A model generated the notes under the pieces. It had not been told where the DNA came from. It did not search any database and saw only the letters and a list, made by a program, of their open reading frames with translations. Positions 3,416-64,000 of a DNA stretch of 64,000 nucleotides are shown here, piece after piece. The DNA comes from Arenicellales bacterium (lineage in GTDB: Bacteria; Pseudomonadota; Gammaproteobacteria; Arenicellales; JAJDZL01): the NCBI GenBank assembly GCA_965232345.1, contig OZ246969.1:168-64167 (forward strand), written 5' to 3'. Each line of letters starts with the position of its first letter. Within the stretch, counting starts at the first letter, position 1. Made by a program: the position numbers and the translations under genes.

Positions 3416-4735
3416 TCAGACCAGAAGCCCGGCCAGCAAGGTCGCGATACCCAAGAAAGAGAAAAATCCGGCAATGTCAGTGATCGTAGTCAATACGATC
3501 GATGAGGCAACCGCCGGATCCTGACCTATTTTTTTCAGTCCCACCGGCACCACAACTCCTGCGATTCCAGCGATCATCATGGCCAGAATCATCGATGAGC
3601 TGATGACCAGAACCAATCCGGCCTGCCCGCTCCAGATATAGACAGCGATTCCACAGACAATGGCAATGGCGATGCCATTCCAGAGTCCGACGAAGGTCTC
3701 CTTCCGGATCATCTTCGGCCAGTCGCGTACGTGAACCTCCCTCAGGGCCAAGCCCCGCATGGTTACCGCCAACGCCTGCGCGCCGGCATTTCCGGACTGC
3801 CCTGCCACCACCGGCAGCAGCACAGCAAGCGCAGTGAACTTTGCGATGGTGCCTTCGAAAATCCCAACGACAGCCGCCGCCGCGAATGCCGTCAGCAGAT
3901 TCACCTGCATCCAGGGCAGCCGCTTGCGAATCGCCAGCCCGGGTCCGGATGACGCGCGCTCGTCTTTGCTCACCCCCACCATGGTTTGAATGTCGATTGA
4001 CACATCGTCTTTCAGAACATCGATCAGCGTCGCATGTCGAATCACCCCCAGCACCCGACGCGCATGATCGACCACAGCCAGCTCTTCCAAGCCGTAGTCT
4101 TCCATTTTCTGGCTGATCTCCTCGCGTGTCGCAGTTGGCTCGACAACCACCAATACCCGTTCGGAAAGAGACTCAAGCGTGTCTTCCGGGTTGGCAAGCG
4201 CAAGCGTGTTGAGCTGCACGACCGAGCGAAGGCACTGGTTTTCATCGACAAGCCGGAGCTCATAAACAGTCTGGCTGATCTTTCGGGCTCGCAGCATCTG
4301 CTGAGCTTCAGCGACGGTCATGTCTCCTTGGAACAGCAAGACCCGCGAATCCATCAGCCCGCCGGCTGTATCAATCGGATAGGCCATCAATTCCCTGATT
4401 TCATTGGCCAACGACTTGTTCAGGCTGTTCAGCAAGGCGGTCCTTTTATCAGCATTCATTATGGTGAGAATCGATGCCGCTCGGCCGGGGTCGATTGCAT
4501 CCAGCACAGCCAGCGCACTTGACTCCTGCGCCAATTCCAGCATTTCCGATGCCGTCGATGGAGACAGCGCCGACCAGACGGGCGCCGCAATGTCCTCAGG
4601 CACCTGACCCAGAATTTCAAAGGCATCTTCGACAGACAGTGTCTCCAGACGGTTCGCGGCGCTCTGCGGCGCCTCTTGGCAGAATCGGGAAATTAGGATC
4701 GATTCTGCGTTCTGTTGTTCTACGTGCTCGGCCAT
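3416..4735 (-). CDS. mgtE: Magnesium transporter MgtE
   Basis: MgtE N-domain, CBS pair and a C-terminal 5-TM region (…AGNAGAQALAVTMRGLAL…). The track ORF extends to 4801. The ATG at 4735 is preferred because a GGGAGA Shine-Dalgarno sits about 8 nt upstream. Confidence 0.9.
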   Translation of the reverse strand: MAEHVEQQNAESILISRFCQEAPQSAANRLETLSVEDAFEILGQVPEDIAAPVWSALSPSTASEMLELAQESSALAVLDAIDPGRAASILTIMNADKRTALLNSLNKSLANEIRELMAYPIDTAGGLMDSRVLLFQGDMTVAEAQQMLRARKISQTVYELRLVDENQCLRSVVQLNTLALANPEDTLESLSERVLVVVEPTATREEISQKMEDYGLEELAVVDHARRVLGVIRHATLIDVLKDDVSIDIQTMVGVSKDERASSGPGLAIRKRLPWMQVNLLTAFAAAAVVGIFEGTIAKFTALAVLLPVVAGQSGNAGAQALAVTMRGLALREVHVRDWPKMIRKETFVGLWNGIAIAIVCGIAVYIWSGQAGLVLVISSSMILAMMIAGIAGVVVPVGLKKIGQDPAVASSIVLTTITDIAGFFSFLGIATLLAGLLV

Positions 4736-12383: not shown

Positions 12384-13655
12384 ATGGCGGACACGGCAAT
12401 CACTCCAGATCAACCCCTGACGACAGCGGACGGCACGCCACTTAAGACGGCATTGGCTCGGGCTCTTCGCCGAGACAAGCTCAAGTCGCTTGCATTGGTT
12501 GCACCGCTGTTCTTTTTTCTCGGAATTACTTTCCTGATTCCAATCGCCGACATGCTTTGGCGCGGCGTCGACAATCCTATTGTCTCCACTTATCTGCCTC
12601 GAACGACTGAAGCGATTGAACGTTGGGACGCGCTCTCCGGTGAACTACCCGATGAAAGCGTGTTTGAGGCGATGTTCCTGGACATTCAGGAAGGAGCGAA
12701 GGATAAGCTGATCACGCGGGTCGGCAAGCGTCTCAATTACGAATTGCCGGGGATGAACAGTCTGTTCAGAAAGTCTCAGAGACGGGTCCCCAGAATTGAG
12801 GAAGGACCCTATCAGGAAGCTCTGATCAAGGTTGACAAGAAGTGGGGGAATATTGAGACCTGGCAGGTGATCAAAACCTTTTCGCCCACTCTGACATCAG
12901 GCTATTTCCTTGCGGCGCTTGATTTGCAGCTCACGCCAGCCGGCGACATTGAAATTCTCGAGGAAAAGAACCGGATTTACATCAAGCTGTTCTGGCGAAC
13001 ACTTCTTCTAAGCGGATTCATCACGCTGATGACATTGATACTAGGGTATCCGGTCGCTTATCTTCTGGCAACGCTGCCCCTTAAATCCAGCAATATCCTG
13101 CTGATGCTTGTACTGCTGCCGTTCTGGACCTCACTGCTCGTTCGAACGACATCATGGATCGCACTGCTGCAGAGAGAGGGGGTGTTGAACGACATAATGG
13201 TTGCGTTGAATCTGATCGACGAAGACAGTCGCCTGACAATGATTCACAACGCAACCGGAACCGTTGTCGCGATGACACACATTCTGCTACCATTCATGAT
13301 ATTGCCGCTTTACAGCGTTATGAAAACAATTCCTCCCAGCTATATGCGAGCGGCAGTCTCGCTTGGCGCTCATCCCTTCAGCGCATTTTTCAAGGTTTAC
13401 GCACCAAACACAATTCCGGGAATCGGCGCAGGAGGCATTCTTGTCTTCATCCTGGCCATCGGCTACTATATCACCCCCGCTCTGGTTGGCGGCACTTCCG
13501 GTACATTCATCAGCAACTTCATCGCCTACCATGTGTCGATATCCCTGAACTGGGGGCTGGCCGCGGCGCTTGGCATCATTCTGCTGGGCTTGGTGCTGGT
13601 GCTTTACATCCTGTATGATCGAATTGTCGGCGTTGACAACATGAAGCTCGGATAA
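12384..13655 (+). CDS. ABC transporter permease (PotB-like) with a roughly 150-aa insertion after TM1
   Basis: 423 aa. Multi-TM protein with an EAA-loop-type region (SYMRAAVSLGAHPFSAFFKVYAPN). Confidence 0.85.
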   Translation: MADTAITPDQPLTTADGTPLKTALARALRRDKLKSLALVAPLFFFLGITFLIPIADMLWRGVDNPIVSTYLPRTTEAIERWDALSGELPDESVFEAMFLDIQEGAKDKLITRVGKRLNYELPGMNSLFRKSQRRVPRIEEGPYQEALIKVDKKWGNIETWQVIKTFSPTLTSGYFLAALDLQLTPAGDIEILEEKNRIYIKLFWRTLLLSGFITLMTLILGYPVAYLLATLPLKSSNILLMLVLLPFWTSLLVRTTSWIALLQREGVLNDIMVALNLIDEDSRLTMIHNATGTVVAMTHILLPFMILPLYSVMKTIPPSYMRAAVSLGAHPFSAFFKVYAPNTIPGIGAGGILVFILAIGYYITPALVGGTSGTFISNFIAYHVSISLNWGLAAALGIILLGLVLVLYILYDRIVGVDNMKLG

Positions 13656-23726: not shown

Positions 23727-24917
23727 TTATTCCTGACGTGACAGTCCTTGGTGGAAAAAACGATGCCAGTTCCCGCCCATGATCGCTCTGACTTCGGCAT
23801 CGCTGAATCCTGCCGACTCCAATCCATCAGCCACATTCTGCAGGTCTTCAGCTTTTCTGAACCATGCCGGATAATCCGGCCATTTCAATTCTGAATGTCG
23901 ATCCTTCCGATCATCCCAGGTGCCGCTTCTCATATAGGCAAGATAGCCGCTGTCCCAGCCAAGGCACAAGTCTGTGCCAAGCCCAAGATGCTCAACACCG
24001 ATCAGGTCAGCCGTTCTGCAGACCATTTCACAGAACTCCTTCAAGCTGCAGTCTGAACCATTCGACAGATGCAGCGGATAGAGGCTGAACCCCAGCATGC
24101 CGCCGCTCCTCGCCAGTTCCAAAAGCAAATCGTCAGATTTGTTTCGGACAACATCTCGAAAAGACAGCGGGTTGGCATGCGTGATGGCGATCGGACGCTC
24201 GGACACCTGAATCGCATCGAAACAGGTCTTCTCGGCCGTGTGCGAGACATCGACGATCATACCCAATCTGTTCATTTCGCGAACAACCATCCGGCCGAAT
24301 TTTGTCAACCCCGCATCTTTCTCCTCATAGCAGCCGGTCCCAACCAAGTTCTGATTGTTATAGGTCAGCTGCATGACGCGGACGCCCAGCTGGTGGAATA
24401 TCTCAATCAGGGAGAAGTCATCCTCTATCGGTGAGGAATTCTGGAATCCGAGAATGATGCCAGTGCGGCCGCTTTTGTGCGCTCTTTCAATATCGCCCGC
24501 CTCGCGGACTGGCAGAATCAGATTCTCGTGCTCCTTAAACCAGCGGTTCCATTTGCCGATATGCGCTAAAGTTTCCTTGCAATCATGCCAGAATGCAACC
24601 GTAACATGAATCGCGTCCGCTCCCGCGTCGGCCAGCGAGCGGAAATGCTCTTCAGACCAGTTCGAAGCCTGAAGCGCATCGATGACCGGAAACGAATCTT
24701 TGATCTGCATAAGGTTCAGCTTCTTTCCGTGAATGAATTCGTTGCGCTGTGATCGCCGGTGACTTTCTTTCGATGCATGAGTTGTGACAATTGTACTCAC
24801 TATCGGCGCTTCCAGTTTCATCGGGTCATTGCGCGGGACCGAGTGAAACGCGATCACATTTGCAGTTGCCCGCTCAGAAGAAATCACATAATAGGAGCAG
24901 TCAGCAATATGCCTCAC
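23727..24917 (-). CDS. Membrane dipeptidase family protein (peptidase M19)
   Basis: FPVIDALQ…, GVRVMQLTYN, VDVSH, ITHANP and LGTD blocks are typical of M19. The start is uncertain, with alternative ATGs at 24821 and 24710. Confidence 0.8.
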   Translation of the reverse strand: MRHIADCSYYVISSERATANVIAFHSVPRNDPMKLEAPIVSTIVTTHASKESHRRSQRNEFIHGKKLNLMQIKDSFPVIDALQASNWSEEHFRSLADAGADAIHVTVAFWHDCKETLAHIGKWNRWFKEHENLILPVREAGDIERAHKSGRTGIILGFQNSSPIEDDFSLIEIFHQLGVRVMQLTYNNQNLVGTGCYEEKDAGLTKFGRMVVREMNRLGMIVDVSHTAEKTCFDAIQVSERPIAITHANPLSFRDVVRNKSDDLLLELARSGGMLGFSLYPLHLSNGSDCSLKEFCEMVCRTADLIGVEHLGLGTDLCLGWDSGYLAYMRSGTWDDRKDRHSELKWPDYPAWFRKAEDLQNVADGLESAGFSDAEVRAIMGGNWHRFFHQGLSRQE

Positions 24918-24987
24918 CGAAAATCAATTGGAACAGGCTTGAAATGAAACTCTTGCGCAGACACACCACCGGAAAAATGTTTTGACC

Positions 24988-26421
24988 ATGAATGAATTGA
25001 TCTCGAAATCCGCATACGAAGTCGTCCAGCTGCTGAAAGACCGGAAAATCTCACCAGTCGATGCTGTCAGCGCTTCCGCGGAAAGAATCGCGCAGGTTGA
25101 CGGAAGCATCAATGCGCTGCCAACGCTCTGCATCGAACAGGCGCTGGACAAGGCGAAAGCGCTGGAGCGGCAGAATCCATCAGGTCAGTCAGAGAGCCGC
25201 GGATGGCTGGGTGGATTGCCGATCTCGGTCAAGGATCTGACTGAGACAGCCGGGGTGCGGACGACTTTCGGCTCACCGATCTACAAGGACTACGTGCCAG
25301 CCAAATCCGACATTCTGGTTCAGCAGATGGAATACCGCGGCGCGATCATGATGGGCAAATCGAATACACCGGAATTCGGCGCCGGCGCCAGCACATTCAA
25401 CGAGGTCTTTGGAATCACGCGGAATCCGTGGAATACAAGCAAGTCGGTGGCTGGATCATCAGGCGGAGCGTGCGCATCGGTGGCGGCAGGCGAAGTCTGG
25501 CTCGCGACCGGCTCTGATCTGGGCGGAAGCTTGAGAACGCCGGCCAGCTTCAATTCAGTGGTTGGCTTGAGGCCCGGTCCGGGCAGAATTCCGCGCAGCC
25601 GCACACATGAGCCTTTCAGCTGCATGCATGTGCAGGGACCCGTTGCTCGAAACTGCAAAGATGCAGCGCTTTTCCTGGATACGATGGCGGGATATCACCC
25701 ATCCGATCCACTCAGCTATCCAGCTCCCGAGAAGCCCTATATGGACTTCATCGACAAGCCGATCAAACCCAGGCGAGTTGGCTACACTTCAGATCTCGGA
25801 ATCACACCCATTGACTCAGAAGTTGACCAGATATGCCGGGACGCGGTTCAGCGATTTGCAGAGCTGGGCGTTCAGGTTGATCAGGCGTGCCCGAATTTCA
25901 AAGGCGCAATCGAAAGCTTCGATGTCTTGCGCGGCGCTTCTTTTGTCGCGAATTTCTACGGTGAGTACGAAAAGCATGAGCGCCTGCTCAAACCCGAAGT
26001 TGTCTGGAATATCGAGAAGGGAAGCCAGCTGACCGCTGAAGAGATCGGGCGGGCTCAGCGAACACAGGCCCGAATATTCAAATCGATGATTCGGTTTTTC
26101 GACAGCTTCGATCTTCTGATCTGTCCCTGCGCGATCGTGCCACCATTTGATTCTGAAATGCGGTTTGTGGAGTCTCTCGGAGAGCACACCTTCGACACTT
26201 ACTACGAATGGATTGCAATCACCTTTGTGCTTACGTTGACCAGCTGTCCGATTCTGGCTGTGCCTGCGGGATTTACCCGCGAAGGTCTGCCTGTCGGACT
26301 GCAGATCATCGGACCGCCCAGAGATGAAGGCGGTGTGCTGTCCGCTGGGCATCTGCTCGAACAGTTGACTGGCATTCCTGAGCGACTGCCGATTGACCCG
26401 AACATCACTCATCTCGAATGA
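24988..26421 (+). CDS. Amidase (amidase-signature family), second copy in the window
   Basis: SVKD and GSSGGACASVAAG signatures. The track ORF starts at a TTG at 24982, and the ATG is at 24988. Confidence 0.85.
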   Translation: MNELISKSAYEVVQLLKDRKISPVDAVSASAERIAQVDGSINALPTLCIEQALDKAKALERQNPSGQSESRGWLGGLPISVKDLTETAGVRTTFGSPIYKDYVPAKSDILVQQMEYRGAIMMGKSNTPEFGAGASTFNEVFGITRNPWNTSKSVAGSSGGACASVAAGEVWLATGSDLGGSLRTPASFNSVVGLRPGPGRIPRSRTHEPFSCMHVQGPVARNCKDAALFLDTMAGYHPSDPLSYPAPEKPYMDFIDKPIKPRRVGYTSDLGITPIDSEVDQICRDAVQRFAELGVQVDQACPNFKGAIESFDVLRGASFVANFYGEYEKHERLLKPEVVWNIEKGSQLTAEEIGRAQRTQARIFKSMIRFFDSFDLLICPCAIVPPFDSEMRFVESLGEHTFDTYYEWIAITFVLTLTSCPILAVPAGFTREGLPVGLQIIGPPRDEGGVLSAGHLLEQLTGIPERLPIDPNITHLE

Positions 26422-26566
26422 TCTCATTCAGGCAAAGTGACGGATTCACTATTGATAAAATCAATACATGGATCGATTTGGTTCGATTCGCTTTCGTGCT
26501 GAACTTTCGATTCAAACCTGCACAGACCCTGTTAGAAGCGAACTGGATCTTGCCAGAAGATAACCA

Positions 26567-27061
26567 ATGAAATTCCTCATTCTGCCAGTCACCTTTCTTG
26601 TCCTGTTCTGGCTGGCGCTTTCCGGTCACTACACAGGTCTGCTGCTGACGCTTGGCGCAGTTTCCTGCATCTGGGCCGCCTTGATCACCAGGCGGATGGA
26701 GATCGTCGATCACGAAGGCTACCCTATTCATCTGGTGCCTTGGCGAATCATCACCTATTGGTTCTGGTTGAGCAAGGAAATTCTGGTCTCGACATGGGCG
26801 GTCAGCAAGATGATCCTGGCGCCTGAACCCAAGCTTCATCCCAAAGTGGCGCTGCTGCCCGCTGACGAGATGAGCGAAATGCAGCAGGTCATCTATGCGA
26901 ATTCGATCACTCTCACACCGGGCACTCTGACGCTTGAAGTGGATGACTCAGGACTGGAAATCCATGCACTGCGAAGTGAGATGCTTGAAATGCTGGAGCG
27001 CGGTGACATGGCGAACCGCGTTCGTCCGCTCGAATCCCAAAAAGGTTCCAAGTCCACATGA
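26567..27061 (+). CDS. mrpE: Na+/H+ antiporter subunit E (MrpE/MnhE)
   Basis: 164 aa. The N-terminal TM pair and LSGHY…WFWLSKEIL pattern are typical of MnhE. It is the first gene of the overlapping Mrp cluster. Confidence 0.75.
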   Translation: MKFLILPVTFLVLFWLALSGHYTGLLLTLGAVSCIWAALITRRMEIVDHEGYPIHLVPWRIITYWFWLSKEILVSTWAVSKMILAPEPKLHPKVALLPADEMSEMQQVIYANSITLTPGTLTLEVDDSGLEIHALRSEMLEMLERGDMANRVRPLESQKGSKST

Positions 27062-27345
27062 TCGCCGCCGCACTGATCGCTGTTCTGATTGGCATGGCTC
27101 TGCTGCTGATCAGGGCGTTCGCCGGTCCCACCGTCTATGATCGAATTCTTGCGGTGAACAATTTCGGCACCAAGACAGTGCTCGTCATCGCACTGTATGG
27201 ATTTGTAACGGATCGTCCGGACTTTCTGGACATCGCCATTGTTTACGCACTTTGCAATTTCATTGCGACAATTGCGATTCTGAAATACTTCGAGTACGGC
27301 GACCTCGGTCATGTCGGCGAGCAGCCAGAGGATGAGAAGCCGTGA
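27058..27345 (+). CDS. mrpF: Monovalent cation/H+ antiporter subunit F (MrpF)
   Basis: 95 aa with 3 TM segments. It contains PTVYDRILAVN, typical of MnhF, and has a 4-nt overlap with the upstream gene. Confidence 0.75.
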   Translation: MIAAALIAVLIGMALLLIRAFAGPTVYDRILAVNNFGTKTVLVIALYGFVTDRPDFLDIAIVYALCNFIATIAILKYFEYGDLGHVGEQPEDEKP

Positions 27346-27659
27346 TTGACACGATCCTCACCGTCATCAGAGACATTTTTCTAATCGCCGGCTCGCTGGC
27401 AATTCTCATCGGCACATTCGGCATTCTTCGATTTCCGGAGCTGTTCTCTCGAATTCATGCGGCCGGTATCGCCGAGATTGCTGGAGCGAGTCTGATCATC
27501 GCCGGTCTTCTGATTGAGTCAGGCGTCAGTCTGGTCTCTCTCAAACTGCTGATCATTCTGATATTTCTTTTCTTCACCAGTCCGACATCCTCGCACGCGC
27601 TCGCCAAAGCGGCCATTCATGGCAATGTGCTGCCCGTCGTTGGCAGAATCAAGCGGTGA
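27342..27659 (+). CDS. mrpG: Monovalent cation/H+ antiporter subunit G (MrpG)
   Basis: 105 aa. GILRFPELFSRIHAAG…FFTSPTSSHALAKAA is the MnhG signature. Confidence 0.8.
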   Translation: MIDTILTVIRDIFLIAGSLAILIGTFGILRFPELFSRIHAAGIAEIAGASLIIAGLLIESGVSLVSLKLLIILIFLFFTSPTSSHALAKAAIHGNVLPVVGRIKR

Positions 27660-58730: not shown

Positions 58731-59601
58731 GGCCTTTCGAACTGGTGTTGTTCAGCATCAGAATCGCGAGCATTGAGTGAATGGAATTGCGAAGCTCTCT
58801 TCGGTCAACCACCATGTCAAGCGCGCCATGCTCAAGATGAAATTCCGCCCGTTGAAAATCGTCCGGCAAGGACTCGCGCACGGTCTGCTCAACCACCCTG
58901 CGACCCGCGAAACCGATCAGCGCCTTCGGCTCAGCAATGATAATATCGCCCAGCATGGCCAGGCTCGCGGTCACTCCGCCCATCGTCGGATCGGTCAGAA
59001 CCGAAATGTAAGGCAGCCCCGCGGCATTGAGCCGGTCGACGGCCGCGGTTGTCTTCGCCATCTGCATCAGCGAGAACATCGACTCCTGCATCCGCGCCCC
59101 GCCGCTTGCTGAAAAGCACACAAAAGGCGATCGGCGCTCAACACTGGCATCAACACCGTTCATAAATCTCTCACCGACAACCGATCCCATCGAGCCGCCT
59201 AGAAACTCAAAATCGAAAGCCGCCACAACGATCGGCATCTCATTCAGCTTGCCGGTGTAAACGGCCAAAGCGTCATAGCGGCCGGTTTTCTTCTGCGCTT
59301 CAGACAGCCGATCCTTGTACTTTTTTCGATCTCGAAATTTCAGCTTGTCAACCGCTTTGACCTCGCCTTCCAATGGCTCTGCGGAGCCCTTGTCAAGAAA
59401 TGACTCGATGCGCTCGACCGCATTGACGCGCATATGGTGACCGCATTTGGGACAGACTTTCAGATTGTGCTCCAATTCGACCTGATACAGCACCGCCGAG
59501 CATTCAGGGCATTTGACCCAGATGCCCTCTGGCACCCCTTTCTTTGAAAGCCGCCCGCCGGATTTGATCTTCGGCGGCAGCAAGTCGGTGAACCAGTTCA
59601 T
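58720..59601 (-). CDS. accD: Acetyl-CoA carboxylase carboxyltransferase subunit beta
   Basis: Zinc ribbon CPECSAVLY…CPKCGHH and the carboxyltransferase domain [10 protein letters not shown]…SGGARMQE. Confidence 0.95.
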
Positions 59602-59619
59602 ATCGTATCTGGATGAAAA

Positions 59620-60303
59620 TCAGTTCAGGCAAGCTGCATTGTTCGCGGATCGCACTGCGGTGACAAACTCTCGAATTGCCGCCTGGTTCTTCACGCCGGG
59701 GCTGAACTCGACACCTGTGCTGACATCGACTGCTGTGGGTCCGACCTTGCTGATGGCTTGCGCGATATTGCCGCTGTGAAGCCCGCCTGCCAGTATGATC
59801 GGCTTACCAACCTGCGGCACATAATCCCATGAGAATGTTCTGCCGGTGCCGCCCACCTTGTCTTTGACATAAGCATCCAGCAGCAGACCGGCTGCTTCAG
59901 GATAGGAATCAACCCCTTTCGCAACCTGGGCCGGATTTCTGACCCGAAGCGCTTTGATGAAAGGCAAGCCTGCCTCTTGGCAGCGCTGTTCGGATTCATC
60001 TCCGTGAAACTGAATGTAGGTTGGCCTGACTTGGCTCACTATCGCATCAAGCAGATCGTCATCTGGGTTCACGACAACGGCAATGGATGCCACTTCAGGC
60101 GGCAGGGAATCGCGGATCGATTTGGCCTTCTGAGCACTGAGATTTCTGCCGCTCGGAGGGTAGAAGATCAAGCCGATCGCCTCAACACCGCATCGGGACG
60201 CGAACAGCGCGTCCTCGATTCGCGTGATTCCACACACTTTGATCTGCGTCGATTGGCTGCCCTGATCGGAATTCGAAGCAAGAAAGCGAGGACTGATATC
60301 CAT
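59620..60303 (-). CDS. trpF: Phosphoribosylanthranilate isomerase
   Basis: KVCGITRIEDA…, LLDAYVKDKVGGTGRTFSW and ILAGGL blocks. Confidence 0.9.
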   Translation of the reverse strand: MDISPRFLASNSDQGSQSTQIKVCGITRIEDALFASRCGVEAIGLIFYPPSGRNLSAQKAKSIRDSLPPEVASIAVVVNPDDDLLDAIVSQVRPTYIQFHGDESEQRCQEAGLPFIKALRVRNPAQVAKGVDSYPEAAGLLLDAYVKDKVGGTGRTFSWDYVPQVGKPIILAGGLHSGNIAQAISKVGPTAVDVSTGVEFSPGVKNQAAIREFVTAVRSANNAACLN

Positions 60304-60701
60304 CGTGCGAAGTTGTTGGCCGCAATTAGTCTGAAACTGGAGGTGTCAAAAGCAGTTCAAACCATGCTTTATCAGTGATTTTGTGATTGGCTCTGTCTGC
60401 TGCTTGCCTGACTCAATTATATTGAATGGACATCAATCGGCGATAGTATTGTGAACTGCAAGCATTTCAATGAGTTGTTTGGTTATCGTCTGACTGGTTG
60501 AGTTGCGCGTGCTGACTCGAATGAACCACGTTCAGCGCGCCTTGCTGAAACTGATTCTGGAATTGAGCTCTCAGTCTTGATGTGCGACGAATGCGCGAGC
60601 AGTGTGACCTGATACTCAATGCCTCAACAGCATCGCTTACAGAATCGGACTTACAGGAGCAGTTCCGCTAAGTCCCACTGCGGTTGAAACAATTCAATTT
60701 C

Positions 60702-60889
60702 GAGGCAGGAACCGAATAGACTGAATTCAAGCCCATTGAAACAGATAGAACAGAAGTTCGCTGTCAAAGCTGCACTTGTGTGATGAAATCTTGAGGCAGG
60801 AACCGAATAGACTGAATTCAAGCCCATTGAAACAGATAGAACAGAAGTTCGCTGTCAAAGCTGCACTTGTGTGATGAAATCTTGAGGCA
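60702..60889. repeat. Perfect 91-bp tandem duplication (2 full units plus the first 6 bp of a third)
   Basis: The unit is GAGGCAGGAACCGAATAGACTGAATTCAAGCCCATTGAAACAGATAGAACAGAAGTTCGCTGTCAAAGCTGCACTTGTGTGATGAAATCTT. It occurs at 60702-60792 and again, identically, at 60793-60883. GAGGCA follows at 60884-60889. Confidence 0.9.
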
Positions 60890-60957
60890 AAGTCATTACC
60901 TGATGAGTTTCAATGATGAATCTGCTTGGTTGATTTTCCGGCTACTGTGTCTCTAGA

Positions 60958-61545
60958 TTACATGTTCTTCAGCCAAAAGTCACTAAGGTCGAAACTGATC
61001 GCATCAAATGGAGGCAGCGAAACCTCTGAATCTTCAAAAAGTGTATCAATCAGCACCCACTCAGAACCGTTCAACTCAAATGCTTGCAGCGAACAGACAT
61101 CGGCATCCACCAGCCAATAGTACCTGACACCCTCGCGGGCGTATACATCCCGTTTGATACCGAGATCGAGTTTACGAGTTTCAGGCGAAAGCAGTTAACA
61201 TGCCCAGTCCGGGGCTGATGTGAAGTAGTCTACGATTGGAAACGTGGGAAATCGCTCGCGTCGCCAACCTGAAAAATTAGGCACAATTACATCCTCGCCG
61301 AAGTGAATTTCTATCCCTCTAAACAGCCACCAGCCTCCAGGTCCGCCTTCTCCCTTCATAAAGGGCCTGTAGATCGAATGCATAAGCCCTGAACCCGCCA
61401 ATGAGTAGATCGGAGCAGGTACTATGTGAGTGTAGAGCACACCGTCAATGATTTCTGCAACCAAGTATTCTGGCAAGTCGATTACATCCTGATAGGTGGC
61501 TGCAGGTTTGGATTTCAAAAAAATATTCGCCATCGATTCACTCAT
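60958..61545 (-). pseudogene. Uma2-family (DUF820) endonuclease gene interrupted by an in-frame TAA
   Basis: The track ORF 61195..61545 ends …FTSAPDWAC*. The same frame continues LLSPETRKLDLGIKRDVYAREGVRYYWLVDADV…FWLKNM* to 60958. The stop replaces the position of the conserved Glu in the remembered PDWxxEVLSPS motif (GAA to TAA). Confidence 0.75.
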
Positions 61546-61759
61546 GCTACTTTTCCTGTAAGAAAGTCTTCATAAAAGAGAGTGAATTATCAACGCTTTG
61601 AGACTGGAAATCACACCCAGACGCACCAAGAGTCGTAGTTCGAACTCAACTGTTGAATTTAATTTGTAGGACAGACGGCAAGGTGCGCGTAACTTTGACT
61701 ATAAAATGCAGATAACCACTATTCTGAAGTCAAAACCCAATTTCATCTCTGGTTTTGGA

Positions 61760-63604
61760 TCAAGCGGGTGAAACAATTGCCGGCAAAACATCTTCGCCAT
61801 TCAGCATTCGTTGTTGACTTTCTAAGTCCCTCTTAAATTCAGCACGTCTCGAGTAAAGATACGTCCAGCTTGAAAACTCTTTGAATCTCAATTGATTCCG
61901 TGCTTCATCTAAATTCTCCTGAGCCTTCTCAAAATCGGAAAGCGCCCAGTAAACAAGACTCATACACTGGCTGAAATTAGCACCACTGCTTCTTTTTTGA
62001 TCGACAATTTCTGCCAGATACTTGAAATCTTCTATAGGAACAATTTGTGTTTTACCCCATTGTGCCATCGCAAGATTGAAAACATTTGGAATACTCCATT
62101 CGTAATCTATGTTCGAACTTAACTTCTCAGACCAGTCTATTGCCTCGTCAAATTTTCGTTGACCGATAAGACTCAACATTAGATTATCTTGAGCTTTGAA
62201 AACTATTTTTTGCTCGAACTGTGTTTCATCGCATGCAAGTTGAATACATCGTTGGAGCAACTGCTCGGCCGTCTTTAGATTACGCCGGCGAAAGCTGAAT
62301 AAATCGGCGAGATTTAGTAATTCGATCGGGTCGAGTACCAGCACGCTCTCCCAAGTCACGATAGATTCAAGTTGCTTTAAAACTACAGAATCATCATGAG
62401 ACAAGAGAAAGCGAACTGATTCCTTCAGTTCACGGAAATTAAGATTTTTATGTTTTGTTGCTGCGATTATCGAATTCACTGACTCCTTTTTCTCACCCAG
62501 CCTAGACGCGAATCGTGAGTGCAGTATTAGGTAACTTGGTATGTCTTTGAATCTGTCCCAATTTTCTTTCAGTATTTGGTAGGCTTGTTCTTCGTCATGC
62601 CATCCCAAATGACGAACAACTAAATTCAATATTTCGAAATCGTTTATATGATGGTCTAGAATTCGTTTTAAGTTCTGATCTACTTTGTCGGTCTCATCTT
62701 GATTGCGTTCTTGGTTACCATATGGATTGGATACTACATCCTTCAAATAAAAAATCGCCCCATTTCTATCTTGCGCGTTAAATTTTTGGATCTCCTTTAC
62801 AAGATCGGAGTATTCTGATGCGAGTCTGCTTTTGGGTCGAGAAATTGTGAAAATTTCTTGATTCAACAAAGAAAGATCTTGGTAGTGATGGATAGTGGCG
62901 GCGAGTTTTTTATATTTGAGGTTCTTCTGGAACTCCTGAAGACGGCTCCACAATATGCTGTGCTCATCATCTATATCAGGAACATTGGAGGTGACGAAAT
63001 GCATCACTAATTCTTTACTTCCCTCAATATTCTGCTCTCTGACCCGATCAACTATTGGAATCAGCCCAGATAAATTCTGTCTATTTGGAAAAAATAGTAA
63101 AACAACGGCATCGGGAATTTGGCGCGTACAGATGCTGCCAACATCAGTGTGTCCGGTACGAGAGTCAATGAGTACATAATCTGGATTAAGCGATTTCTTC
63201 CACTGGGCCTTGAGGTTTTCGAAAAGAAAGTAGCCATCATTAAAATCGTAAAGATCTCTCCAATTTATCGAATTGAGTCGCTGATGGTAATTTTTCTTTC
63301 GTTCACCTGCTGGCATTAACCATAAAGTGCCATTGGCTTCACTGTTGAAAGAACCTTTATGGACATAGTCATCCAACTCCGGTGCGATTTCAGTATTCAG
63401 GTATTTAGTGACATAATCGACTAGACCTTTGCGCGTTTTGCCTGCCTCCCAGTCCAAACTGAATGTATCGAGTCCAGGAGCTTCAAGGTCGAAGTCAACC
63501 AATAGCACACGTTTTTTTTGCTCAACCAGGTGGGCGGCGCAATTCATCATTGCGATCGAGCGACCGACACCACCCTTAAATGAATAAAAAGTTACTACAT
63601 ACAT
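61760..63604 (-). CDS. KGGVGR-variant ParA/MinD-like P-loop ATPase fused to a roughly 330-aa helical-repeat (TPR-like) C-terminal region
   Basis: 614 aa. The N-terminus VVTFYSFKGGVGRSIAMMNCAAHLV…VLLVDFDLEAPGL…VLIDSRTGHTD is a deviant Walker A with Arg in place of the second Lys. The C-terminal half is rich in helical repeats. Confidence 0.8.
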   Translation of the reverse strand: MYVVTFYSFKGGVGRSIAMMNCAAHLVEQKKRVLLVDFDLEAPGLDTFSLDWEAGKTRKGLVDYVTKYLNTEIAPELDDYVHKGSFNSEANGTLWLMPAGERKKNYHQRLNSINWRDLYDFNDGYFLFENLKAQWKKSLNPDYVLIDSRTGHTDVGSICTRQIPDAVVLLFFPNRQNLSGLIPIVDRVREQNIEGSKELVMHFVTSNVPDIDDEHSILWSRLQEFQKNLKYKKLAATIHHYQDLSLLNQEIFTISRPKSRLASEYSDLVKEIQKFNAQDRNGAIFYLKDVVSNPYGNQERNQDETDKVDQNLKRILDHHINDFEILNLVVRHLGWHDEEQAYQILKENWDRFKDIPSYLILHSRFASRLGEKKESVNSIIAATKHKNLNFRELKESVRFLLSHDDSVVLKQLESIVTWESVLVLDPIELLNLADLFSFRRRNLKTAEQLLQRCIQLACDETQFEQKIVFKAQDNLMLSLIGQRKFDEAIDWSEKLSSNIDYEWSIPNVFNLAMAQWGKTQIVPIEDFKYLAEIVDQKRSSGANFSQCMSLVYWALSDFEKAQENLDEARNQLRFKEFSSWTYLYSRRAEFKRDLESQQRMLNGEDVLPAIVSPA

Positions 63605-63616
63605 TCTTCGCTGACC

Positions 63617-64000
63617 TCAAAGGGCGAAAGCTTGTCTATATCGCTTGAATTTACTCGAATCTCCATTGATGGCCGAAAACTTTTGATCAACAGATATCAC
63701 ATCTTCAGCTTTCGAAGCTCTAAATGACAGAGCGTCAAGATTGCCCGATATACCAATCAAGTAAAGAAAATTGTCCATGGCGGGGTTTTGAATACTTCCC
63801 CCTTTTTCCCATCTGTTTATTGAAGCAACTCCTATTCCTGTCTTTTCGGCAAACTCATTTTGGGTAAGTCCAAATATCTCGCGAATTCCACGGACTTCTG
63901 AAGGTGTCATGACTTTCAAATATTTACAAACAGCATCATGCTCGATTTTCGCCGCCTCCGGAGTTGTGAAATCAATGTCGCAGGCACTGCAATGGTGAAC
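63617..64000 (-). CDS. Zinc-finger plus HTH (MqsA/YgiT-like, XRE-type) DNA-binding protein; 5' end lies outside the window
   Basis: The reading frame is open to the window edge (…VHHCSACDIDFTTPEAAKIEHDAVCKYLKVMTPSEVRGIREIFGLTQNEFAEKTGIGVASINRWEKG…). A Cys-containing region precedes an XRE-type HTH. The stop lies 12 nt before the ATPase start. Confidence 0.7.
   Translation of the reverse strand, partial: VHHCSACDIDFTTPEAAKIEHDAVCKYLKVMTPSEVRGIREIFGLTQNEFAEKTGIGVASINRWEKGGSIQNPAMDNFLYLIGISGNLDALSFRASKAEDVISVDQKFSAINGDSSKFKRYRQAFAL

Follow-up and report, generated by a model that had tools for sequence, protein, structure and literature searches.

The 64,000-nucleotide stretch from an Arenicellales bacterium analysed here (GenBank assembly GCA_965232345.1, contig OZ246969.1, positions 168 to 64,167; the window) ends within a cassette that in other genomes consists of three genes. 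These encode a small protein of about 117 amino acids, a zinc-ribbon and helix-turn-helix (HTH) protein of the MqsA family, and a ParA/MinD-like ATPase with a variant KGGVGR P-loop fused to an array resembling tetratricopeptide repeats (TPR). A preliminary description of the window had seen a two-gene module made of the last two of these genes, a count that did not survive comparison with relatives, where the gene for the ~117-amino-acid protein lies upstream of the MqsA-like gene; the unit is a widespread, mobile three-gene cassette. We propose that it is a tripartite toxin-antitoxin (TA)-type conflict module, in which the small protein would be the toxin, the MqsA-like protein the antitoxin and repressor, and the ATPase-TPR protein a nucleotide switch acting on the antitoxin's tail, a reading whose chances of being right we consider to be about even.

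Conservation of the three-gene cassette

Scanning one genome per species gave 80 loci, the source genome not among them, and 79 of these were analysed. In 77 of the 79 the gene directly upstream of the ATPase gene, on the same strand, is MqsA-like, so that the conserved pairing set out earlier as a check is present, and a search with a single sequence found the ORF of about 117 amino acids upstream of the MqsA-like gene in 58. When the flanking open reading frames (ORFs) were clustered all against all, only three families proved to be conserved (in 79, 76 and 57 loci, respectively), the remaining clusters being antisense shadow ORFs or present in at most seven loci. The order in relatives is small protein, MqsA-like protein, ATPase-TPR protein, with the three genes co-oriented and their coding regions nearly abutting, and the ATPase gene is the last of the operon, not the first. 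No ParB is conserved next to it in the 79 loci, the window itself being readable only up to 64000; the partition context that the preliminary description had named as a refuting outcome is not conserved there.

The same unit emerged from a reciprocal test, performed on metagenome contigs starting from the small protein, in which the MqsA-like gene was present in all 72 loci with room for it and the ATPase gene, about 600 nucleotides downstream, in 44 of 48. The carriers belong to the Acidobacteriota, Planctomycetota, Gemmatimonadota, Binatia, Alpha-, Gamma- and Deltaproteobacteria, Spirochaetia, Verrucomicrobiota and Bacillota (one isolate), and cultivated ones include Rhizobium phaseoli N831 and Massilia forsythiae GN2-R2 (both on a plasmid), Bradyrhizobium sp. 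STM 3557 and Paludibacillus litoralis. Because the closest relatives of the window protein (61-62% identity) carry all three genes, the first cassette gene of this genome is expected just past position 64000.

The ATPase-TPR module is also reused with other partners. At two loci (L079:900-5584 and L080:6459-10476) KGGVGR-TPR proteins of 778 and 674 amino acids, respectively, are preceded by a protein of about 430-510 amino acids and a winged-helix-like one of about 220-240 amino acids, both judged by eye, in place of the small and MqsA-like genes; the KGGVGR protein of L079 has Pfam TPR-S "sensor" repeats.

The three proteins

The coordinates, motifs and 12-nucleotide spacing first given for the ATPase gene and its partner were all correct on re-reading, and the features of the cassette within the window are the following.

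61760..63604, minus strand: KGGVGR-variant ParA/MinD-like NTPase with TPR-like array, complete gene, 614 amino acids (ORF list; stop codon 61760-61762)
62759..63604, minus strand: NTPase domain, residues 1-282 (Foldseek against the PDB and motif counts)
63557..63580, minus strand: P-loop codons, F9-KGGVGR-S16 (direct reading)
61763..62758, minus strand: TPR-like helical C-terminal domain, residues 283-614 (AlphaFold2 model, profile matches, Pfam matches in homologues)
63605..63616, minus strand: intergenic spacer of 12 nucleotides, GGTCAGCGAAGA on the coding strand, from the MqsA-like stop codon to the ATPase ATG
63617..64000, minus strand: 3' part of the MqsA-family zinc-ribbon/XRE-HTH gene, 127 codons plus stop (5' end beyond the window)
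63980..63991, minus strand: second CxxC of the zinc ribbon, C4-S-A-C7 of the fragment (the first CxxC would fall past 64000)
63776..63886, minus strand: XRE-type HTH, fragment residues 39-75 (Pfam HTH_3)
63620..63724, minus strand: C-terminal tail of about 35 amino acids, fragment residues 93-127, ...KFSAI...RQAFAL (alignment with E. coli MqsA)

The 614-codon ORF opens with an ATG, its first residues reading MYVVTFYSFKGGVGRS, and the MqsA-like fragment is in frame from 64000 down to its stop codon at 63617-63619, reading VHHCSACD...AVCKY...GLTQNEFAEKTGIGVASINRWEKG..., with VHHCSACDIDFTTPEAAKIEHDAVCKYLKVMTPSEVRGIREIFGLTQNEFAEKTGIGVASINRWEKGGSIQNPAMDNFLYLIG...RQAFAL as its last 127 codons. The spacer of 12 nucleotides between them indicates an operon junction; most relatives have between a few and about 25 nucleotides at this place, or the two genes seem to overlap.

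The ATPase ORF is not a chance ORF, because it matches the NCBIfam model NF047398 ("KGGVGR-motif variant AAA ATPase") with 175.5 bits against a cutoff of 90 (E 1.4e-51; residues 2-188 on profile positions 3-189 of 190), and because more than 5,900 full-length homologues, conserved through the C-terminus, were found. Generic ParA, MinD, VirC1 and NifH models match weakly, and only in the first ~45 residues. An AlphaFold2 (AF2) model of the whole protein was built on 24 family members (pLDDT 86.4, pTM 0.77), and Foldseek matched its N-terminal ~280 residues to PDB structures of Soj, MinD, ParA, FlhG, McdA and the nitrogenase Fe protein NifH (6iub, 1hyq, 8ray, 2bek and 1wcv; target-normalised TM 0.70-0.78, probability 1.00, E about 1e-7). 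Profiles, model and Foldseek together bear out the domain calls made at first from the sequence, namely an MqsA-like zinc-finger and HTH protein beside a ParA/MinD-fold KGGVGR NTPase with a TPR-like tail. The motifs of the ATPase are a deviant Walker A (FKGGVGRS), switch I (DFDLEAPG), Walker B (VLIDSRTG) and the family motifs CTRQxPD and NVPDxDDE, and among 120 homologues DFDLEAPG was counted in 116, DSRTG in 119 and CTRQ in all 120. The family has kept the signature Lys10, the Ser/Thr after the P-loop, the MinD-like switch I and the Walker B Asp, and has Arg15 in place of the P-loop Lys, with KGGxGR[ST] present in 99 of the 99 homologues that have an intact N-terminus. The protein has, in short, the SIMIBI ParA/MinD fold and lacks the canonical GK[ST] P-loop, and no NB-ARC or NACHT matches of the STAND kind were found in it. 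As the Arg is invariable while the other nucleotide-binding motifs are near-invariant, this pattern of conservation points to a variant nucleotide switch maintained by selection, not to decay. The behaviour of Walker A Lys-to-Arg mutants of ParA/MinD proteins is a guide to the activity to be anticipated, and by this analogy the ATPase would be expected to bind nucleotide and dimerise, with slow or no hydrolysis.

Among the 120 best homologues, 21 are gene calls that begin at an internal Met (MAMMN...), so that the KGGVGR P-loop is lost from the predicted protein; P0005, P0006, P0024 and P0031 are among the calls lacking it. In the genome of P0005 (L002:10001-11851) the DNA encodes the full N-terminus, as tblastn matched residues 1-612, and the P-loop-less homologues are a systematic start-codon miscall.

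The C-terminal half is built in the AF2 model of paired helices from residue ~280 to 601, all-helical but for a small beta-hairpin at 575-586. The window protein by itself gives weak, sub-threshold Pfam TPR matches, and a PDB search with the single sequence of its C-terminal domain gave no match; its homologues carry many stronger precomputed Pfam TPR matches. A family profile run against the PDB reached, over residues 307-522, IFT88 (5e-7) and a designed consensus TPR protein (CTPR, 7e-6), as well as PA4667 and SRP72, with E values ranging from 5e-7 to 5e-3. Mean pairwise identity is 33% in this domain versus 59% in the N-terminal one, and the motifs FNxAMAxWG, QCxS and FSxWxYL are invariant in it. 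Three homologues (P0006, 765 amino acids; P0017, 738 amino acids; and the protein at L060:8160-10544, 794 amino acids) continue for an extra 130-180 residues past the TPR array, without a Pfam match, and these extensions may be appended effector or adaptor domains.

The MqsA-like fragment matches Pfam HTH_3 (1.5e-8) and MqsA_antitoxin (3.5e-5). Against TIGR03830, the NCBIfam model of the MqsA antitoxin family (PF15731), it reaches 55.7 bits, below the cutoff of 61.8, because the window edge truncates the gene and its N-terminal ~50 residues, with the first zinc knuckle, lie outside; the full-length homologue from the nearest relative (L001, 65% identical to the fragment) scores 77.8 bits against the same cutoff. 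The second CxxC (C4 and C7) and the HTH are visible in the window, and relatives supply the complete layout of two CxxC pairs followed by an XRE HTH. The four zinc-ribbon Cys align with the zinc ligands of E. coli MqsA, two of them being invariant and two present in at least 90% of the sequences, and on these sequence features the middle cassette protein is a bona fide MqsA-family zinc-ribbon/HTH protein.

The cassette's MqsA-like proteins have in addition an N-terminal leader and a C-terminal tail of 35-45 amino acids, the latter absent from E. coli MqsA; in the alignment it shows F(R/P)x(L/I), which is semi-conserved, and FxL(R) at its end. We propose that this tail is a putative docking peptide for the ATPase-TPR protein. 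A terminal [FY]x[LFIV] motif was found in 101 of 130 loci with the ATPase and in 0 of 4 without it, a count obtained with a crude regular expression and, for the ATPase-less loci, on a small sample of three independent variants. The ATPase-less loci (L113/L114:4983-5875, L126:283-891 and L156:5016-5831) consist of the small gene and the MqsA-like gene only, and the C-termini of their MqsA-like proteins are unrelated, being a basic tail or a different domain. The MqsA-like protein of L156 is fused to an additional domain of about 120 amino acids.

The small protein is known from relatives; its family comprises 499 representatives (clustered at 50% identity), each a stand-alone protein about 110-130 amino acids long. 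Its AF2 model (pLDDT 93.5) shows two helices followed by four beta-strands; Y96, S110 and F111 are invariant, and K98, R109 and H112 near-invariant. The highest TM-score among 50 PDB rows returned by Foldseek belongs to MqsR in its complex with MqsA (3hi2_B, 0.46/0.54), at a non-significant E of 0.53. The only segment that hhalign aligned between this family and MqsR, likewise without significance, pairs LYIKLQLGxGxVIGRSF with VYLKLTVIDDVLI-VSF and sets Y-x-K...R-S-F-H of the small protein opposite Y81-x-K83...S94-F95-K96 of MqsR, in which Y81 and K96 are reportedly catalytic. That the small protein is an MqsR/RelE-like RNase toxin is the leading but unproven reading of these resemblances.

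In divergent versions of the cassette from Planctomycetota and Verrucomicrobiota the first gene encodes other proteins of about 115-130 amino acids that keep a C-terminus of the type ...(I/L)Y(V/F)K...hhhh(S/C)FH (h, hydrophobic), and in these versions the KGGVGR domain is kept and the TPR array is different. Just 5' of the small gene we noted AT-rich palindromes (L001:9013-9076; L166:3813-3846 and 3941-3964), for example GTATCATA/TATGATAC and TTTACTATTGATAA-N6-TTATCAATAGTAAA, which are candidate operators for the MqsA-like HTH.

Proposed mechanism and alternative readings

In the model we favour, the first protein would be a growth-arresting effector, as suggested by its occupying the place that mqsR has before mqsA, by its predicted fold and by the Y-x-K...R-S-F-H residues that line up with MqsR. 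The MqsA-like protein would neutralise it through the zinc-ribbon domain and autorepress the operon through the HTH, and the ATPase-TPR protein would bind the antitoxin tail in its TPR groove. ATP-dependent sandwich dimerisation would be the switch, with slow or no hydrolysis owing to the Lys-to-Arg replacement, and would stabilise or sequester the antitoxin until a trigger, for example an invader protein or the loss of ATP, freed the toxin. The preliminary description had seen no recognisable effector, and this still holds for the C-terminal half of the ATPase, where domain searches and the model revealed no enzymatic effector domain; the small upstream protein, however, is now a candidate, because the architecture is TA-like and the gene order is that of mqsR-mqsA.

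The cassette combines known kinds of system (MqsRA-type TA pairs, tripartite TA systems and KGGVGR conflict-system ATPases) and is not a categorically new entity. Like MqsR/MqsA of E. coli (ygiU-ygiT), it has a middle gene of family TIGR03830, with zinc ribbon and XRE HTH, preceded by a small gene that is close to it or overlaps it (an ATGA-type overlap of 4 nucleotides in L165 and L166) and whose product is about the size of MqsR, is predicted to fold into helices plus a sheet and has YxK...SF(H/K) in its C-terminal part, in register with MqsR. Unlike in MqsR/MqsA, no membership of the small protein in the MqsR family PF15723 could be detected, the antitoxin has the leader and the tail described above, and a third gene for a 600-residue ATPase-TPR protein is obligatorily linked. 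MqsA-type antitoxins are known to pair with different BECR-fold toxins, namely MqsR and DUF4258 (PMC11980606). In toxin-antitoxin-chaperone (TAC) systems, described for MqsA-, HigA- and HicB-type antitoxins (PMC5105189 and PMC3581621), the antitoxin is extended at its C-terminus and this extension accompanies a third gene (Bordes et al. 2016, PMC5105189). The cassette resembles TAC systems so described, the MqsRA type included, in its three genes, in its extended antitoxin and in having two-gene relatives without the extension, and differs in that its third gene encodes a KGGVGR ParA/MinD-fold NTPase-TPR protein, which would act on the tail, and not a SecB-like chaperone.

The preliminary description had placed such ATPases in surveys of NTP-dependent conflict systems, and at the level of the domain this was confirmed. 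Kaur et al. (2020, eLife; PMC7159879) describe effector-associated MinD/ParA-like domains, "predicted to be inactive", in vWA-MoxR conflict systems, and the window protein is a member of this NF047398-type group at the domain level, with the same Lys-to-Arg P-loop. Unlike the cassette, the domains of that survey stand in vWA-MoxR or AP-ATPase contexts and are called inactive; the MqsA-linked cassette and the family of about 600 amino acids are not described there, and "MqsA" occurs 0 times in its text. Literature searches for KGGVGR in this sense, PDC-M28, MqsA with ATPase, MqsA with TPR, and ParA-like ATPase with TPR and defence island returned nothing on the cassette, and DefensePredictor does not mention it.

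With ParA, Soj and MinD the cassette ATPase shares the fold, the signature Lys of the deviant Walker A, the switch I DxD and the Walker B Asp, and it differs from them in the Arg that replaces the P-loop Lys, in the fused TPR array, in its link to a TA-type regulator and in having no ParB, MinE or MinC partner beside it. A PADLOC run, one of the checks proposed at the outset, matched residues 4-216 of the ATPase to PDC-M28B profiles (3e-35 and 3.5e-18), on positions 131-347 of a 438-position profile, so that the two architectures are not the same; no PDC-M28 model was matched by the MqsA-like or the small protein. PDC-M28 is itself a candidate system only. Membership in it was rejected, as only a partial domain of gene B is present and genes A and B are not both found.

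Several observations weigh against the tripartite TA model. The small gene is not visible in the window, where it would fall beyond 64000; its product belongs to no Pfam, NCBIfam or PADLOC family (11 variants were run against Pfam), has no significant sequence or Foldseek match in the PDB (best E 0.07; MqsR E 0.53) and aligns with MqsR in hhalign with a probability of just 1-7%, and its N-terminal RPTDWRP segment has no MqsR counterpart; its toxicity and RNase activity are putative. The putative contact between TPR array and tail is deduced from co-occurrence, with four negative loci of which three are independent, and the regular expression missed the tail motif in 29 of the 130 ATPase-positive loci. 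The Arg P-loop could make the ATPase a nucleotide-independent scaffold. Most cassette neighbourhoods, moreover, consist of ordinary metabolic genes, the PADLOC match concerns one domain of an untested candidate, and no defence phenotype is on record for the cassette. The earlier suggestion of a conflict or defence system is partly supported: gene order, sizes, spacing and antitoxin family are consistent with a type II TA system, defence is unproven, and no phage record with the ATPase was found.

Four other explanations were considered. The cassette might be an addiction or stabilisation module, that is, an ordinary type II TA pair whose tailed antitoxin is protected or folded by a chaperone-like ATPase-TPR protein, with no defence role and with the consequence that the plasmids and islands carrying it are stabilised. 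The association of an antitoxin extension with a third gene in the TAC systems of PMC5105189 and PMC3581621 fits this explanation, as do the rare two-gene versions that lack both the ATPase and the tail motif, the copies on large plasmids, and the invariant residues of the C-terminal domain, which suit a constant partner and not a diversifying invader ligand. We nevertheless regard it as unlikely, in that the third gene does not encode a SecB-like chaperone, a nucleotide switch of 600 residues would be costly for mere protection of a tail, and the C-terminal domain evolves much faster than the N-terminal one. The same rapid divergence would suit a SIMIBI analogue of the STAND/NLR receptors, in which the TPR array senses an invader protein and ATP-dependent dimerisation pulls the antitoxin off the toxin, leading to abortive infection. 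The layout of an NTPase with a C-terminal TPR sensor, the TPR-S domain of the related protein at L079, the copies found beside MmeI or type IIG restriction-modification-like genes, and a GC content and location that point to horizontal transfer would all agree with such a receptor; we hold it to be quite unlikely all the same, as the PADLOC match is at the level of one domain of an untested candidate system and the invariant C-terminal residues suggest a constant ligand.

The roles could also be inverted, the ATPase-TPR protein itself being the effector, an inactive MinD/ParA mimic that on release poisons cell division or the positioning of chromosomes or plasmids, with the MqsA-like protein as transcriptional regulator only and the small protein as an immunity or accessory factor. 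MinD/ParA-like domains "predicted to be inactive" do stand among the effectors "related to cell division" listed by Kaur et al. 2020 (PMC7159879), KGGVGR domains are fused to TIR-annotated proteins on plasmids (H9), and PDC-M28B shares the domain. Strong purifying selection on the nucleotide-contacting motifs other than the Lys is contrary to a dead mimic, however; no membrane-targeting helix or DNA-binding surface is evident in the ATPase sequence, and a toxin-antitoxin logic is already at hand in the first two genes, ordered as they are like mqsR-mqsA, all of which makes this inversion distinctly improbable in our view. Housekeeping partition or positioning, with a ParA-type ATPase and a small DNA-binding HTH adaptor segregating a replicon or placing a cargo, is what the pipeline name "ParA family protein", the Soj/ParA/MinD fold and the plasmid copies would bring to mind. 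We think it highly implausible, given that the partner is of an antitoxin family, that all members have Arg for the P-loop Lys and a fused TPR array of 330 amino acids, that most copies are chromosomal, at variable sites and in many phyla, and that the carrier plasmids have their own replication genes nearby. A partition system was in fact rejected on the lack of a conserved ParB at the 79 loci, the terminal position of the ATPase gene in the operon and the antitoxin-family partner.

A further reading would be a new class of three-component immune or abortive-infection switch, in which an Arg-P-loop SIMIBI NTPase plays the STAND role, its TPR array senses an invader or stress signal, the ATP-locked dimer captures the antitoxin tail, and a toxin of a new family of about 117 amino acids (YxK...RSFH) is released; we give this reading only a rather small chance of being correct. 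Should the tripartite model hold, the ATPase-TPR protein would be a third kind of third component in TA systems, after SecB-like chaperones and HipS-type partners, and the KGGVGR P-loop ATPases, annotated as "ParA family protein" in thousands of genomes, would acquire a first functional context. The unannotated family of about 117 amino acids is now defined as a candidate toxin. Routine annotation misleads here in three ways, through the "ParA" name, the missed small gene and the 21 of 120 gene calls without a P-loop.

Genomic surroundings and mobility

In the window, folC, accD and trpF, all confirmed by Pfam, are followed by about 1.4 kb of degenerate sequence and then by the cassette, and GC content falls from about 55% in folC-accD-trpF to 39-45% over the cassette (window positions 60000-64000), a drop that is consistent with recent horizontal acquisition. 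Relatives with 61% identity have the cassette at a different location from the window, and the sites of relatives are unrelated: some copies stand among metabolic genes, others beside fragments of IS66 and Transposase_31 together with an MNT gene, beside a gene for a PIN toxin or beside one for an MmeI-family enzyme. Most copies are chromosomal, and full cassettes also reside on megaplasmids of Rhizobium phaseoli and Polymorphobacter and on a Massilia plasmid of 23 kb, the cassette of Rhizobium phaseoli N831 lying at about 24881-27650 of the pRphaN831c record; on these plasmids PGAP annotates a "ParA family protein" and a "type II TA system antitoxin MqsA family protein", with the small ORF absent from the gene table. 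Because of the GC drop, a location unlike that in the closest relatives and the plasmid copies, the accessory context proposed earlier stands, and the cassette is by these signs horizontally mobile.

The spacer between trpF and the cassette contains an exact tandem duplication of 91 bp (60702-60889, 2.1 copies, 100% match), as originally reported, which may be an insertion or recombination scar at the island edge. The broken ORFs at 60958-61545 on the minus strand (116 and 50 amino acids), taken at first for an inactivated Uma2 nuclease gene, have no Pfam match at E<=0.01, and the label is unconfirmed. When 59500-64000 was scanned for Rfam families, promoters and terminators, no match rose above the level of chance.

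At four loci from different phyla (L034:3026-7618, L065:5075-8947, L073:5284-8982 and L084:3994-6816) very large proteins with NPPY/NPPF methyltransferase motifs are encoded within about 2.3 kb upstream of the cassette, the one at L084 being labelled MmeI family by Pfam, and these neighbours may represent a defence-island association. On plasmid pRphaN831c of Rhizobium phaseoli (L165:7908-13827), directly downstream of the cassette and on the opposite strand, an SbcC-like "AAA family ATPase", a "DNA repair exonuclease" and a very large DUF3320 protein are encoded, which may be another conflict-type locus. In one relative, two HAD-family hydrolase genes stand on either side of the cassette (L082:7867-8535 and 12470-13147; 222 and 225 amino acids), which suggests that a target gene was either inserted into or duplicated. 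Lastly, the KGGVGR domain alone (residues ~3-190) was matched in a Sinorhizobium plasmid protein whose annotation is "TIR domain-containing" and in proteins annotated "AAA family ATPase" or "P-loop NTPase" on plasmids of Enterobacter, Pantoea and Paraburkholderia (plasmid matches H9 and H13-H16), so that, judging from these matches, the domain recurs in other architectures on mobile elements.

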